This document shows, piece after piece, positions 1,636 through 7,591 of a stretch of DNA of 21,117 nucleotides (position 1 is the first letter of the stretch; every line of letters starts with the position of its first letter). The stretch is from contig JAUWKS010000056.1 of the NCBI GenBank assembly GCA_030614005.1, positions 1 through 21,117 on the forward strand. Direction: 5' to 3'. This DNA comes from Candidatus Heimdallarchaeota archaeon (GTDB taxonomy: Archaea; Asgardarchaeota; Heimdallarchaeia; JABLTI01). The position numbers were made by a program, and so were the translations under genes. A model generated the notes under the pieces. That model saw only the letters and a list, made by a program, of their open reading frames with translations, was not told the origin of the DNA and searched no databases.

Positions 1636-2058
1636 GTGACTGAAAATAACAAAGTTGTAACTCGAACTGGGATTTCCTTGGAAATTGCCCTTCTTACAGA
1701 ATTTGATGAATGGTTAGAGAAAAAGGGCTTCCCAAATAGAAGTGAAGGGATACGGTATTTAATTCGAGAGAAACTAGACCAAGAAGCTCTCCTCACAAAC
1801 CCCGATTTCATTGTTGTGGGTTCATTGACTTATGTCTTTCAACATCATGGTTTTGATTGTACCTTAAAACTGATAGAAATTCAACATGATTTTGAAGAGT
1901 TGATTATTTCAACTATGCATGCTCATATTACACATGATTTATGTTTAGAAACAATTTTTCTTAAAGGAAAGCAAATTAAGATAAGAAAATTGGCTGAGAG
2001 TATTTTAGCTTTAAAGGGAGTACTAAAAGGGCAGCTATATCTTGCCCCTGCAGATTAG
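1636..2058 (+). CDS. nikR: Nickel-responsive transcriptional regulator NikR
   Basis: N-terminal ribbon-helix-helix (TRTGISL...FDEWLEKKGFPNRSEGIRYLIRE) plus the C-terminal Ni site IQH...STMHAHITHDLCLE (H, HxH, C). AGGTG at 1625-1629 favours GTG 1636 over GTG 1627. Confidence 0.95.
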   Translation: MTENNKVVTRTGISLEIALLTEFDEWLEKKGFPNRSEGIRYLIREKLDQEALLTNPDFIVVGSLTYVFQHHGFDCTLKLIEIQHDFEELIISTMHAHITHDLCLETIFLKGKQIKIRKLAESILALKGVLKGQLYLAPAD

Positions 2059-3036
2059 TTACTCTTTAGCAACACCCATATTTGTTTCTGGGGAAAGATG
2101 TTCAATTGCTACTTCGTCATTTTCTCTCTTAATAAACTCCAAACTTTTCTCCTTTTGCCTTCGTTTCCTTTTTGGGGAGAAGATAACACTGATAACAAAA
2201 ATTGTACTGGAAACAATGATAATTGATGATCCTACTGGAAAATCAACTAGAAACGAAAGTAAAACACCGCCAACAGCGGAAGCAATACCAACAAGAGGTG
2301 AAAAGAGGAAAATTTTCTTTGTATCATAAGCAAATTGGTAGACAGTTGAGGTTGGATTAACAATTAATGCATAGACCAATAACGCTCCAACAATCTTAAG
2401 TGTGAAAGAAACTGTTAAGGCAGTAAGGAAGAGAATGAGAAAATTGAAAAAGTTCACTCTAATTCCTGCAGCAAGAGCCACTTTTTTGTTGAACATTGTG
2501 GCAATAAACTCCTTATAAAAGATTATTAGCACAAGAATGATTACTATGTTAATAATTCCTAAAAGAAGAAAATCAATAGTATCTAAACCAAAGACACTTC
2601 CCCAAAGAATTTGAACTGCTTCACTTGAAACCACCCCTGAAGGTAAGAAACTTAGAAAGATAAAGCCCAGTGCAAGTGTTAAAGCAAAGATTATACCCAA
2701 AACCACATTGGAATTTAGTCTTGTTTTTTCTGAAATTGGTCCAAGTAAAAGTGCTACACCAATAGCGAATAAGGTCGCCGAAATAATTGGGTCAAAATTA
2801 ATGTAACTATTAATTAGCAAACCTAAAGCTGCTCCTGCAAAAGCTGCGTGAGACATGGAAAAACCTATTGAGGTTACTTTTAGGTGAACTACAAAAACAC
2901 CAATAAGAGAACAAGCCATACCTGCGAGAACTGCTCCAAGAACAACCTTGGCAATGAGCTGAAGTTGGAAGTTGGCAAATAATAGGAATAATTGAGTCAT
3001 TTTTTTCACCATGTTATTGTTTTGAACAAATTCCAT
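2059..3036 (-). CDS. Metal ABC transporter permease (ZnuB/MntB, ABC-3 family)
   Basis: Multi-TM protein with family motifs SMSHAAFAGAALG, ILWGSVFG, ALAAGI and LKIVGALLVYALIVNP. The start is uncertain (3036, 3012 or 3000; GGTGA precedes 3000). Confidence 0.93.
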   Translation of the reverse strand: MEFVQNNNMVKKMTQLFLLFANFQLQLIAKVVLGAVLAGMACSLIGVFVVHLKVTSIGFSMSHAAFAGAALGLLINSYINFDPIISATLFAIGVALLLGPISEKTRLNSNVVLGIIFALTLALGFIFLSFLPSGVVSSEAVQILWGSVFGLDTIDFLLLGIINIVIILVLIIFYKEFIATMFNKKVALAAGIRVNFFNFLILFLTALTVSFTLKIVGALLVYALIVNPTSTVYQFAYDTKKIFLFSPLVGIASAVGGVLLSFLVDFPVGSSIIIVSSTIFVISVIFSPKRKRRQKEKSLEFIKRENDEVAIEHLSPETNMGVAKE

Positions 3037-3040
3037 CAAG

Positions 3041-3883
3041 TTATGCTTCTGAAGCAGACAGCTCCACAAATGCTCGGTAAATTTTAGATTCCACTGCAGT
3101 AATTCTATTCGAATCCAATACTAGCTTGCCTTGTCTGAGCATCACTACTCTGTTTACCTCTTTTGGTATATCAGAACCATGAGAAACACAAAGGATTGTT
3201 ACACCTGCCTCTTGATTCAACTTCAAGAGCAGCTGGTAAATTTCTTGGCGAGCATTAATATCCAAATTTGCAAATGGTTCATCTAGGAGCAATAATTCAG
3301 GTTCACCAGCTAGGGCATTTGCTATCATTACTTTTTGATGCTGACCAGCTGATAGCTTACCAATTGGACGAGACCAAAAATCTTCCATCCCTACTGCTTG
3401 CAAACTAGCTCTAACAATCTCCCAGTCCGCTTCCTTGATCCTTTTTCCAAGACCTATCAAACCAGAACGACCAATCATAACGACATCTTTAACTAGAAAA
3501 GGTTCATTAGGCTCAAACTCAAGACCCTGAATAACGTAACCGATTCTTTTTCTTATATCAGGACCCTCTTGCTTTACAGATAAACCGAAAACCATCACTT
3601 CACCTTTGCTTATTGGAAGTATTCCACAAATAGTTTCAAGAATGGTTGTTTTACCTGCTCCATTCGGTCCAACAATAAAGATGAGTTCTCCTTTAGAGAC
3701 TTGCATAGATACTTTATGAAGGGTAGGAATTCGCTCACCTTCATAGACAGTATCAACATTCTCAAGCTTTACTATTAGATCATTATAAGGAAATTTTATC
3801 TTGTTTATTGAATTGTTTCTTTGACTTGTAAGTTGAATATTTGCATTTATAGCAGTAAGAAAACTCTCACGATCAAAATGCAT
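3041..3883 (-). CDS. Metal ABC transporter ATP-binding subunit (ZnuC/MntA-like)
   Basis: Walker A GPNGAGKTT, signature LSAGQ, Walker B LLLDEP, H-loop VSH. Its ATG overlaps the upstream stop (TAATG). Confidence 0.95.
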   Translation of the reverse strand: MHFDRESFLTAINANIQLTSQRNNSINKIKFPYNDLIVKLENVDTVYEGERIPTLHKVSMQVSKGELIFIVGPNGAGKTTILETICGILPISKGEVMVFGLSVKQEGPDIRKRIGYVIQGLEFEPNEPFLVKDVVMIGRSGLIGLGKRIKEADWEIVRASLQAVGMEDFWSRPIGKLSAGQHQKVMIANALAGEPELLLLDEPFANLDINARQEIYQLLLKLNQEAGVTILCVSHGSDIPKEVNRVVMLRQGKLVLDSNRITAVESKIYRAFVELSASEA

Positions 3884-4296
3884 TACTCTATCTCCAAGAA
3901 ATCTTCAATGGGTTTAGTAACAAAGGTTAAAGCAATTTTTCTAACAGCTTCTGGTTTCAATCCTTTTAGATCGAGTGGAACCTTTAGCCGCATTTTGAGA
4001 GTTTCATTATTCATAGTAAAAACAGCTTCTGGTTTACCCTTATCTATGACAGTAATGTTTCCTTTGCCTAAGGTACATCCTGAAATGAACTGAATTCCAT
4101 CAATCATACAAGATATTGGTGGATTGATACCGGTATGTGCTACCACTTTCATTATGAAAGGATCAAAACCTAACCTATTAATAGCCGTTTCAGCCATTCG
4201 AGCTCCAACAATCAAATAGGGACCAAGATGAGTGTGAAATCGAGCTAAAATCTCTACAACTTCAACCACTTTAAAGGGACTATATTCTGCTTTCAT
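3883..4296 (-). CDS. FmdE-family (PF02663-like) protein, probable metal chaperone or accessory protein
   Basis: RFHTHLGPYLIVGARMA and SCMIDGIQFISGCTLGKGNI are FmdE-family motifs. GGTGA precedes ATG 4296 (MKAEY). Confidence 0.88.
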   Translation of the reverse strand: MKAEYSPFKVVEVVEILARFHTHLGPYLIVGARMAETAINRLGFDPFIMKVVAHTGINPPISCMIDGIQFISGCTLGKGNITVIDKGKPEAVFTMNNETLKMRLKVPLDLKGLKPEAVRKIALTFVTKPIEDFLEIE

Positions 4297-4331
4297 GTTT
4301 TTCACCAATTTCAATATTAGACAATAAACCA

Positions 4332-5291
4332 TTACTTCTTAGCTTTCTTTCTTAGTGATGGTAGAGCTACTGCTATAATGACTAAAAATAAAATCGTACT
4401 TTGGAGAAGGAGCCCATTATTTTTAGTTTCATTTAATCCAGTCACTAATTGCTGCAAGTTGTATTCCAACATCTCGAGATAGCTATCTGAGTTTTCAGAG
4501 TCTTGTGGAAAATTCGTTAGAACAATATGAGGAACATTAACTAAACTAGCAACTTCTTTACCTATACTTGTTCCAGATTGAAGATTACTAATTATCAGCT
4601 CCGCACTTAAATTCCCTGCAGCTATTGCTAAATCAGAAACCTCTTGCACTGACATAAGTTCATCGGATTTAGACCAATTCCCTACAACATTTAACCCAAG
4701 AAAATTACTAAAACCAATTTGATGAGTCATTACAACTGCTTTCATTCCTGTCAAATTATTGTCTTGTGCTGCTTGGAGAAGCTCAATTGCTTTTGCATCA
4801 ATTTGACTACTGAAAAGGGAAAGTTCTTCGTTAAAGTCTGTAGCTAATTCTGGATATGTCTGATTTAATTTACTTGTAATTACATTGAGATATTTTTTAG
4901 CATTATCCGGAACACCCCAAGGAACTGCGCCTACCAATGGTGCTAAAGCATATTTTGCACTAGTTTTCCCCGCACTAGATAATAAATCATCTAACCATTG
5001 CCCTTCAAAACCATGACAAAAAACAACATCTGCTTCTTGAATTAACTCTAAATCACTCGGACTGGAATCATAGTGAGCTGGACATGCCCCTGGATTAATA
5101 ATGGGTTCAATGACTTGATTAGTAATTGTTCCAACAAAATCAGCCAATGTTGTTGTGGTTGCAGCAACTTTTATTACCGATTCACTATTCTTGACAAGAC
5201 TTTTCCTTCCTTGTGTAATTTGTGGTACTAATAATAAACTAATCACAACAAATGTCAAACAGATCAATTTTACTTTAGTTTTTCCTTTCAC
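4332..5291 (-). CDS. Metal ABC substrate-binding protein (ZnuA/TroA, cluster A-I) with a C-terminal membrane anchor
   Basis: Signal peptide; VAATTTTLADFV; PAHYDSSPSDLELIQEADVVFCHGFE; MTHQIGF; C-terminal hydrophobic helix then RKKAKK. GAGGT at 5302-5298 precedes GTG 5291. Confidence 0.9.
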   Translation of the reverse strand: MKGKTKVKLICLTFVVISLLLVPQITQGRKSLVKNSESVIKVAATTTTLADFVGTITNQVIEPIINPGACPAHYDSSPSDLELIQEADVVFCHGFEGQWLDDLLSSAGKTSAKYALAPLVGAVPWGVPDNAKKYLNVITSKLNQTYPELATDFNEELSLFSSQIDAKAIELLQAAQDNNLTGMKAVVMTHQIGFSNFLGLNVVGNWSKSDELMSVQEVSDLAIAAGNLSAELIISNLQSGTSIGKEVASLVNVPHIVLTNFPQDSENSDSYLEMLEYNLQQLVTGLNETKNNGLLLQSTILFLVIIAVALPSLRKKAKK

Positions 5292-5333
5292 TGAAATACC
5301 TCTTTTTATTCTTGAAGATTTTAGGAGAATAGA

Positions 5334-5360
5334 GTAACACGATTTTATAAATGGTGTTAT
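5334..5360. promoter_or_regulatory. Putative NikR operator enclosing the TATA box of the ABC operon
   Basis: GTAACAC-N13-GTGTTAT inverted repeat, containing TAACA-N15-TGTTA. The spacer holds TTTATAAAA on the minus strand, about 50-60 bp upstream of the first start codon. Confidence 0.75.
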
Positions 5361-5536
5361 TCATTCCATTCTGGAAAGAAAATAACAGACTAAAAATCGA
5401 AGAAAACGCCTATTTGGATCAGAGTAATTCCTTCTATCTTCAGTTATTTTTTTGTTTGAAACAATTTTAATTTACTTTGGAATCAAAAAGTCAAGAAGAA
5501 ATAAGAAAAGAGAAAAAGAGAGGTTAATTGCTCTCA

Positions 5537-7591
5537 TTATTTCTTAACCAAGCCAACCTTATCAAGGGTATATCCATAGATAAAAGCAGTTTCTTTCATG
5601 TGTTCATATCGTCCAGAAGCACCGCCGTGTCCTGCACCCATATTTGTTTTCAACAGCAACTCATTTTTGTCAGTTTTTGATACTCTCAGTTTGGCTACCA
5701 TTTTTGCTGGTTCCCAGTAAGCAACACGAGGATCATTTAATCCGGCTGTTACTAAAATATGAGGATAATCTTTTGCTTCAATATTATCATACGGAGAATA
5801 GGATAGCATATAATCAAAGTATTCTTTCTCGTTTGGATTTCCCCATTCCTCCCATTCTTGAGCAGTTAATGGAATGGTTTCATCTAGCATAGTATTGATT
5901 ACATCAACAAATGGCACTCGAGCAATAACTAACTGGAATAATTCGGGAGCCATGTTCAAAATCGCACCCATTAATAATCCACCGGCACTTCCTCCGGCAA
6001 CTACTAATTGTTCTTTTGAAGTTACTTTTTCGGCTATTAGGTATTTAGCGCAGTCAATGAAATCGTAGAAGGTATTCTTTTTCTTAAGCATTTTACCATC
6101 TTCGTACCACTTTCTCCCAAGTTCACCACCACCTCGTACGTGAGCGATTACATACACCATATTTCGCTCGATTAGACTTACTAAAGTTGGAGAGAAATTG
6201 GTATCCATTGAATAGCCGTAGGAACCATAAGCATAGAGCATTGTTGGTGCAGGTGTTGTTAGTCCTTTCTTGTGAACGATTGAAATAGGCACTTGCACAC
6301 CATCACGAGCTTTTACATTTACTCGAGTAGTCACATAATCTTCTTTATTGTAATTCTTTACTTCATCCTCTTTTAAAAGAACTAATTTCTTATCTTTTAC
6401 CTGGTAATCAAAAATGGTTACAGGGGTTATTAAAGAAGTATAACGAAGTCGCAAAACATCTGATGAATATTCGAAATTATCTCCAGTCCAAACACCGTAA
6501 ACCGGTTCTGGGAATGTTACATCATGGTTTCTCTTATCATCTTTCCCGAAGAAAATACCTATTTTTATTAACCCTTCATGTCGCTTAACGATTATCAGGT
6601 ATGGTTCAAATGCAATAGACCATGAGAGCTTCACATCATCATTATGAGCAATTATTTCTTCCCAATCATTTTTAGCTAGCTTATTAATCGCGGTTCTCAT
6701 TAACTTGAAATTTGTTGCTTTATCATCATTTGTTACAATGTAGAAAAAACCATCTTTATGAGTTATACTGTACTCGTGGTCTTTTTCTCTCAAGAGAACA
6801 ACGACAAACTCTCCTAGAGGATTTGACAAATCAAGGAACCGTGTTTCTGAACTAGTAGTGGTTTCAGAATCCATGAAGAGGTATTTCCCATCTTTGCTTT
6901 TCCAAACTGTTAATCTTCTAGTAATATCCTTTTCTTCAAAAATTAGTCTATCTTCTTCTGTAGAAGAACCAAGACGATGTCTTTTTAGTGCATAGGGTCT
7001 CTGAGCTTCATCCCTTAAAGTATAGTAGAGGGTATTATCATCTACCCATTCAAAGCTCCAACCAATATTCTCTACTCCAGTAGAGCTAGTTTCGCCTGTT
7101 TCAAGGTTCTTAATCTGGATACTATATTTTTCATAACCGGTATTGTCAATTGAATAAGCCAATAATTTCTGATTCGGGCTAATTTTCATTGTCTGAATTT
7201 TATAATATTCAAAGTCCTTAGCTAACTCATTTACATCTATGAGTAATTCTTCTTTGTTCTCTAAATTCAAGTGTTTTCGATAGTAAATCTTATACTCTTT
7301 TCCTTTCTCATTTTTATTATAATAGTAATAGTCCTTGAATTTGTAGGGAACACTCTCATCATCTTCCTTTATTCTATTCTTCATTTCAGTAAATAACTCG
7401 TCAATAAAAGGTTCCAGATAGTTAGTTTTTGCTTTAGTATAATCATTTTCAGCTGTCAAATAATCGATTACTTCTTGCTTTTCTTTTCCTCGCAACCAAA
7501 AATAATCATCTACTAATTCATTCCCAAAAATCTTAGTGATCTTGGGTTCTTTCTTTGCAATTGGGGGATTAGTTTTTTCCGGCATAATCAT
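5537..7591 (-). CDS. ptrB: Oligopeptidase B (protease II, family S9A)
   Basis: N-terminal DDYFWLR and beta-propeller region; catalytic GGSAGG, NDPRV and GHGG; S1 motif PLTAQEWEEWGNP. Start at 7591 or 7585. Confidence 0.95.
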   Translation of the reverse strand: MIMPEKTNPPIAKKEPKITKIFGNELVDDYFWLRGKEKQEVIDYLTAENDYTKAKTNYLEPFIDELFTEMKNRIKEDDESVPYKFKDYYYYNKNEKGKEYKIYYRKHLNLENKEELLIDVNELAKDFEYYKIQTMKISPNQKLLAYSIDNTGYEKYSIQIKNLETGETSSTGVENIGWSFEWVDDNTLYYTLRDEAQRPYALKRHRLGSSTEEDRLIFEEKDITRRLTVWKSKDGKYLFMDSETTTSSETRFLDLSNPLGEFVVVLLREKDHEYSITHKDGFFYIVTNDDKATNFKLMRTAINKLAKNDWEEIIAHNDDVKLSWSIAFEPYLIIVKRHEGLIKIGIFFGKDDKRNHDVTFPEPVYGVWTGDNFEYSSDVLRLRYTSLITPVTIFDYQVKDKKLVLLKEDEVKNYNKEDYVTTRVNVKARDGVQVPISIVHKKGLTTPAPTMLYAYGSYGYSMDTNFSPTLVSLIERNMVYVIAHVRGGGELGRKWYEDGKMLKKKNTFYDFIDCAKYLIAEKVTSKEQLVVAGGSAGGLLMGAILNMAPELFQLVIARVPFVDVINTMLDETIPLTAQEWEEWGNPNEKEYFDYMLSYSPYDNIEAKDYPHILVTAGLNDPRVAYWEPAKMVAKLRVSKTDKNELLLKTNMGAGHGGASGRYEHMKETAFIYGYTLDKVGLVKK

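Follow-up and report, generated by a model that had tools for sequence, protein, structure and literature searches.

A conserved palindrome at the promoter of a ZnuA-type metal-uptake operon in a heimdallarchaeal genome is a candidate NikR operator

A 27-bp palindrome upstream of a metal-uptake operon in a heimdallarchaeal genome raises the question of which protein, if any, binds there, and to which metal such a switch would respond. The DNA analyzed (the window, 21,117 nucleotides) is contig C117 of MAG G000, a genome of 3.62 Mb with 90% completeness and 33.5% GC, whose relatives are labeled either Heimdallarchaeota or Promethearchaeota; the sequencing runs listed for the locus are all DNA runs, from cold-seep and marine-sediment metagenomes, with no RNA run among them. 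To our knowledge, almost no transcription-factor sites are known in Asgard archaea, and the NikR encoded in the window, together with this palindrome, provides a concrete candidate regulator-operator pair in this group.

The operon downstream of the palindrome lies on the minus strand. Its first gene encodes a divergent ZnuA-family (cluster A-I) substrate-binding protein (SBP) of 319 aa (4332-5291; PF01297, 88 bits), with a GTG start at 5291 and a signal peptide. It is followed, on the same strand, by genes for an FmdE-domain protein (3883-4332; PF02663), an ABC transporter ATPase (3041-3883; PF00005), and an ABC-3 family permease (2059-3069; PF00950, 182 bits), the last given as the longest open reading frame, the true start of which may be further in. 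The FmdE-domain gene occupies the same position in orthologous operons and in bacterial-type cassettes (discussed later). Convergent with the operon, on the plus strand, is nikR (1627-2058; PF08753, 88 bits), 3.3 kb from the palindrome and the sole copy in G000 (one match). Its product has an N-terminal ribbon-helix-helix (RHH) domain, a C-terminal NikR_C domain and a His3Cys high-affinity site, and exceeds two NCBIfam NikR equivalog cut-offs (for NF003381, 123.9 relative to a cut-off of 105). The ligands H87, H98, H100, and C106 align with H76, H87, H89, and C95 of the Escherichia coli protein, so that all four ligands of the high-affinity site are intact. On the other side of the palindrome, several oligo-T runs (5470-5536, minus strand) come directly after the stop codon of a peptidase S9 gene on the same strand and probably form an archaeal terminator between that gene and the putatively NikR-controlled promoter.

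The palindrome (5334-5360, assigned to neither strand) has the form GTAACAC-N13-GTGTTAT. Confirming the description in an earlier note on this DNA, which had quoted the sequence correctly and called it near-perfect, complementary pairs were found at 10 of 13 positions about the center at 5347; in the outer arms, 6 of the 7 positions match, and further in ATTT faces AAAT. A repeat search of the window extended the match to 14-nt arms with 86% complementarity. The half-site cores are TAACAC on the left (5335-5340) and GTGTTA on the right (5354-5359), and the end of the palindrome lies 42 nt from the SBP start codon. This arrangement has the geometry described for NikR boxes, i.e., two inverted half-sites of 6-7 bp, 13-14 bp apart and 27-28 bp in total (PMC545781). 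The promoter on which it lies is that of a metal-uptake gene, and NikR is encoded in the same genome. When the pattern GTAACAC-N12..15-GTGTTAC was searched for in either orientation with at most one mismatch, a single match was obtained in the whole 3.62-Mb genome.

We compared five lineages: the window, G007, G009 (contig L012), the JGI contig L006, and the NCBI contig L005, which is 3.2 kb long and stops past the FmdE gene. Orthologs of the SBP (57-59% identity) are encoded in G007, L006, and L005, and in each of the three the palindrome is found upstream of the SBP gene; the gene order, with a convergent nikR, is kept in L006 and in the G007-lineage contigs L004 and L007. In a palindrome-anchored alignment, the 12 arm positions (TAACAC/GTGTTA) are 100% identical in all five independent lineages. 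Averaged over pairs, identity is 0.59 for the spacer, 0.47 for the 40 nt on the upstream side, and 0.32 for the 40 nt on the downstream side. As random AT-rich DNA would give approximately 0.28, the flanks, at 0.32-0.47, have diverged almost to random. Phylogenetic footprinting of orthologous promoters, which the earlier note had proposed as a check, thus bore out its expectation of conserved arms. The distance from operator to start codon is likewise conserved (42-44 nt) in three ZnuA-type promoters. In L005, the leader from the operator to the SBP start codon contains a tandem run of approximately five G-plus-A8/A9 units (1534-1623), which makes it longer than in the other lineages.

The same stretch might instead be an RNA hairpin in the 5' leader, a terminator, or a palindrome that arose by chance, readings that even jointly strike us as most improbable. 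The stretch does fold as RNA at -9.8 kcal/mol (z-score -4.0), and its position 177 nt downstream of the same-strand peptidase gene would suit a hairpin or terminator. The arm sequence itself, however, is invariant and without compensatory changes; because no arm position varies, there is none of the covariation that an RNA stem would show, and the inner positions vary without keeping their pairing. Further, the upstream gene differs or is divergent in the orthologs, and the TATA-like box that precedes the palindrome in orthologous promoters (see below) would start transcription inside the palindrome. As for chance, TAACAC-N13-GTGTTA with at most one mismatch matched once in the window, relative to 0.01 matches expected.

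Two genomes of the same genus show what the box travels with. The NikR of G009 is 78% identical to that of the window and has the same TRTGISL beta-strand, and in G009 the same palindrome is found upstream of a CbiM/NikM-family gene, which is likewise convergent with nikR. Since the same box and an orthologous regulator are here associated with a CbiM/NikM gene, the motif follows nikR, not the transporter type. No ZnuA-type SBP is found in G009 and no CbiM in G000 or G007, and the distribution of these two proteins is therefore complementary. The operator-bearing gene of G009 (L012, 8506-9635) is a lone CbiM/NikM-family gene, the 348-aa product of which has an additional membrane region at the C-terminus; its contig, G009:C53, is labeled Bathyarchaeia by NCBI, and the genome set used here places G009 in the genus of the window. 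The second genome, G001 (a sister species; approximately 77% nucleotide identity), has flanks syntenic with the window and is without an approximately 3.6-kb stretch equivalent to window positions ~1708-5302, comprising nikR from about codon 28 on and all four transporter genes. At the deletion (L087, i.e., G001:C386, 1400-1560), the first ~27 codons of nikR run into the operator, with the junction at a short segment of similarity, indicating that the regulator and the operon were lost as one unit in a single event. The operator of G001, with perfect arms and a TATA-like spacer, survives as a relic, flanked by a zinc-finger gene and the peptidase S9 gene.

Published NikR boxes provide an additional line of evidence. 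The earlier note had compared the core TAACA-N15-TGTTA with the Helicobacter pylori consensus TRWYA-N15-TRWYA. That consensus is indeed published (PMC3177205) and the core fits it formally, but the fit is uninformative: the H. pylori literature calls the consensus poorly defined, and it was matched five times in the window relative to 4.33 matches expected from shuffles, a chance level at which the fit of this site carries no weight. The delta-proteobacterial NikR box is GTGTTAC-[N13/14]-GTAACAC (Rodionov et al. 2004, PMC545781), and a reversed form, GTAACAC-[N13]-GTGTTAC, is found at nikMLKQO of Desulfotalea psychrophila and at nikK of D. vulgaris (PMC545781). Of the 14 arm bases of this reversed box, 13 are shared by the window site, and the spacing is identical. 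Judged by sequence, this is the informative match, far more so than the fit to the H. pylori consensus.

That this is a NikR-type operator, as the earlier note had suggested, is supported by conservation, by co-occurrence with nikR, and by the match to a published NikR box. We conclude that the NikR encoded at 1627-2058, 3.3 kb away, very probably uses the palindrome as its operator, on the promoter of the neighboring metal-uptake operon. It would then belong to a known class, with a box type known from bacteria, and its assignment as an ordinary kind of metal switch is well supported. The operator could in principle serve a different transcription factor, either an AsnC/Lrp-type protein, such as that encoded beside nikR in some loci, or a Zur/DtxR-type sensor, a reading to which we assign only a very small likelihood. 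An AsnC-family gene does adjoin nikR in G007, L006, and L007, but the window and G009/L012, both of which have the box, showed no such gene next to nikR; further, no regulator other than nikR is shared by all the loci that extend far enough to reveal their neighbors, and the box is of the type predicted for NikR in bacteria.

To judge how far NikR control might extend, we scored sites with a matrix built from the four non-window sites only. The window site scored 31.4 bits and the runner-up in the 3.6-Mb genome 16.9 bits, suggesting that the regulon is this one operon. In G000, other matches with up to two mismatches and other matrix matches reached 17 bits or less and look like background, and no site above background was found at the [NiFe]-hydrogenase loci. 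For the region upstream of nikR itself, examined in the window and at three orthologous loci, even the highest matrix scores were negative, in agreement with the earlier report of no equivalent site there. Across the 82 genomes of the class, a 16-base pattern scan yielded matches in 12 genomes, as compared with 10 for a reversed-pattern control; only four matches, all from the same genus (G000, G007, G009, and G001), are credible. The other class-wide matches were rejected, as those with neighboring open reading frames scanned fell within or next to unrelated genes, among them DNA polymerase IV, primase, and Hsp70-like genes.

NikR is more widespread than the box. Of the 82 genomes of the class, 39 encode it, and a search of genome contigs with the NikR alignment gave two loci. 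The box is restricted to the NikR subclade with the beta-strand TRTGISL. In the sister NikR clade, the beta-strand of which is nearly identical (TRTGVSF), no such box was found within 7 kb, a result that counts against the reading of the palindrome as a NikR operator, and of 20 other NikR loci of the class, searched over ±7 kb, G009 alone had such a box. Confined to the one subclade, the motif is poorly suited to mapping an Asgard-wide nickel regulon, the use that the earlier note had foreseen for it: there is one site per genome, hydrogenase loci are at background, and class-wide matches equal the control. Related-looking pairs of other types were observed near other NikR loci of the class, namely GTAATAC-N15-GTATTAC (near the NikR genes of L053 and L054) and GTCTTAC-N15-GTAACA; a GAACAC-N12-GTGTTA site in L050 lies beside genes without a Pfam match. 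A Helarchaeota homolog of the SBP (L009/L011; 42% identity), with no FmdE gene in its operon and no nikR in the examined locus, has different inverted repeats in its promoter (L009, ~5827-5885), with the words GTATTAC/GTAATAC.

How would NikR act at this site? In the window, the spacer contains the TATA-like sequence TTTATAAAA (5343-5351, minus strand), which is a plausible TATA box; no TATA-like box was found upstream of the palindrome, where it was looked for in both the window and the G001 relic, and the relic has the same spacer. Downstream, the order given by the earlier note is correct: a Shine-Dalgarno-like GAGGT (5302-5298, minus strand) stands 6 nt before the GTG at 5291, which opens the signal peptide. 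The orthologous promoters are built differently. In G007, G009, L006, and L005, a BRE/TATA-like box (cAAA followed by TTTTATAAA or a close variant) lies 5-16 nt upstream of the palindrome and ends 5-8 nt short of it, and in two of these four promoters the spacers, TTTCGAAAA and TTTTCGAAG, are not TATA-like, suggesting that a TATA box within the spacer is specific to the lineage of the window.

Archaeal TATA boxes are usually centered approximately 26 nt upstream of the transcription start. With this spacing, transcription of the window operon would be expected to start near 5321, approximately 30 nt before the start codon, while in the orthologs, with the TATA box upstream, it would start near the dyad, the operator spanning approximately -15 to +12. 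The earlier note had pictured an operator around the TATA box, with Ni-NikR blocking TBP/TFB. That picture is plausible for the window and the G001 relic, with their TATA-like spacers, but would not apply to the four other promoters, where the TATA-like box is upstream. As the TATA-like box lies outside the palindrome in four lineages, the conserved logic would be occlusion of the promoter at the start site or beside it, and TBP/TFB need not be excluded.

We propose the following mechanism. Metal-loaded NikR would be a tetramer with an RHH dimer at each end; the dimers would sit on the TAACAC and GTGTTA half-sites, the centers of which are about two helical turns apart, with the AT-rich spacer between them. 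Bound in this way when metal is abundant, NikR would silence the SBP-FmdE-ATPase-permease importer at its promoter. In the window, where the sole TATA-like element is in the spacer, NikR and TBP/TFB would be competitors; in the orthologous promoters, with the TATA box upstream and the operator at approximately -15 to +12, it may instead block recruitment of RNA polymerase.

The operator had also been offered as independent support for nickel specificity, a role that it cannot fill, since an operator shows which protein binds, not which metal is sensed. We nevertheless consider nickel, on indirect evidence, the most likely metal to be both sensed and imported. A NikR-family protein that senses zinc or another metal, e.g., cobalt, and controls an ordinary Zn/Mn-type importer is an unlikely alternative, although a less remote one than a different transcription factor. 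It draws on the transporter itself, which is of the ZnuA/ABC-3 type, a family known for Zn, Mn, and Fe but not Ni, and on the suggestion by Kaster et al. (2011, PMC3087415) of a zinc response for MTH603, a NikR homolog encoded beside ZnuABC in Methanothermobacter. The four square-planar nickel-site residues are conserved, however, and in G009 the orthologous regulator and box are found on a CbiM/NikM gene, not a zinc system; as CbiM-family proteins can carry cobalt, the latter case speaks against zinc but not against cobalt. Also weighing against zinc, G000 has a separate canonical ZnuA as well as a ZIP transporter: a second ZnuA-family gene (G000:C78:19219-19986) scored 187 bits relative to 88 for the window SBP and is probably the true zinc or manganese system of this genome. 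Finally, G000 has no known nickel importer (neither CbiM/NikM nor NiCoT was found, at 90% completeness) despite at least four [NiFe]-hydrogenase large-subunit genes.

One observation counts against both the nickel and the NikR-operator readings: the ZnuA-FmdE-ATPase-ABC-3 cassette recurs without NikR in bacterial-type contigs. Such NikR-less four-gene cassettes were seen in the metagenome contigs L072 (6001-11808), L074 (4293-7073), and L076 (630-3604), and that of L072 adjoins FeoAB and a DtxR-family repressor.

For archaea, only Nik/CbiMNQO, NikABCDE, and NiCoT have been listed as Ni/Co importers (Zhang et al., PMC2667541), and the regulated transporter (ZnuA, FmdE, ABC_tran, and ABC-3) is outside all three families, so that a nickel role for it would be an addition to the list. 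We tentatively suggest, with confidence falling somewhat short of even, that the ZnuA-type SBP/FmdE/ABC-3 cassette is a nickel importer that, in this heimdallarchaeal genus, has replaced NikM(N) at the nikR-linked position, a non-orthologous displacement, with the FmdE protein as a dedicated nickel-handling partner. If so, the cassette would constitute a fourth nickel-uptake family in archaea. The main value of the site is indirect, in that it connects the nickel regulator to a “zinc-type” ABC importer that includes an FmdE protein, a link that is of note in a genome with several [NiFe] hydrogenases and no recognized nickel transporter.

The closest archaeal counterpart is the MTH603 locus, likened here by gene arrangement: in both, an archaeal nikR adjoins a ZnuABC-type cluster. 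They differ in that no operator was described for MTH603 and that its authors proposed zinc sensing. The NikR-nikABCDE system of E. coli offers a mechanistic parallel. Its operator, GTATGA-N16-TCATAC (PMC7055735), likewise has two inverted 6-bp half-sites about two turns apart within 27-28 bp, and its regulator, an RHH tetramer in which the same four residues bind nickel, represses an uptake operon adjoining nikR, as is predicted here; half-site sequence, promoter type, and transporter family differ, as does the beta-strand, which reads R-T-G-I-S in the window NikR and R-V-T-I-T in E. coli. The reversed delta-proteobacterial box, although bacterial, resembles the window site in its 13-bp spacing, its 27-bp length, and its position on an importer promoter linked to nikR. 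The delta-proteobacterial boxes, which are computational predictions themselves, serve NikMNQO/NikKMLQO systems, whereas the window site would serve a ZnuA-type/FmdE ABC system in an archaeal host with TATA/BRE promoters. One predicted bacterial-type NikR box would thus be used in two archaeal layouts, with the TATA box either inside the operator or just upstream of it.
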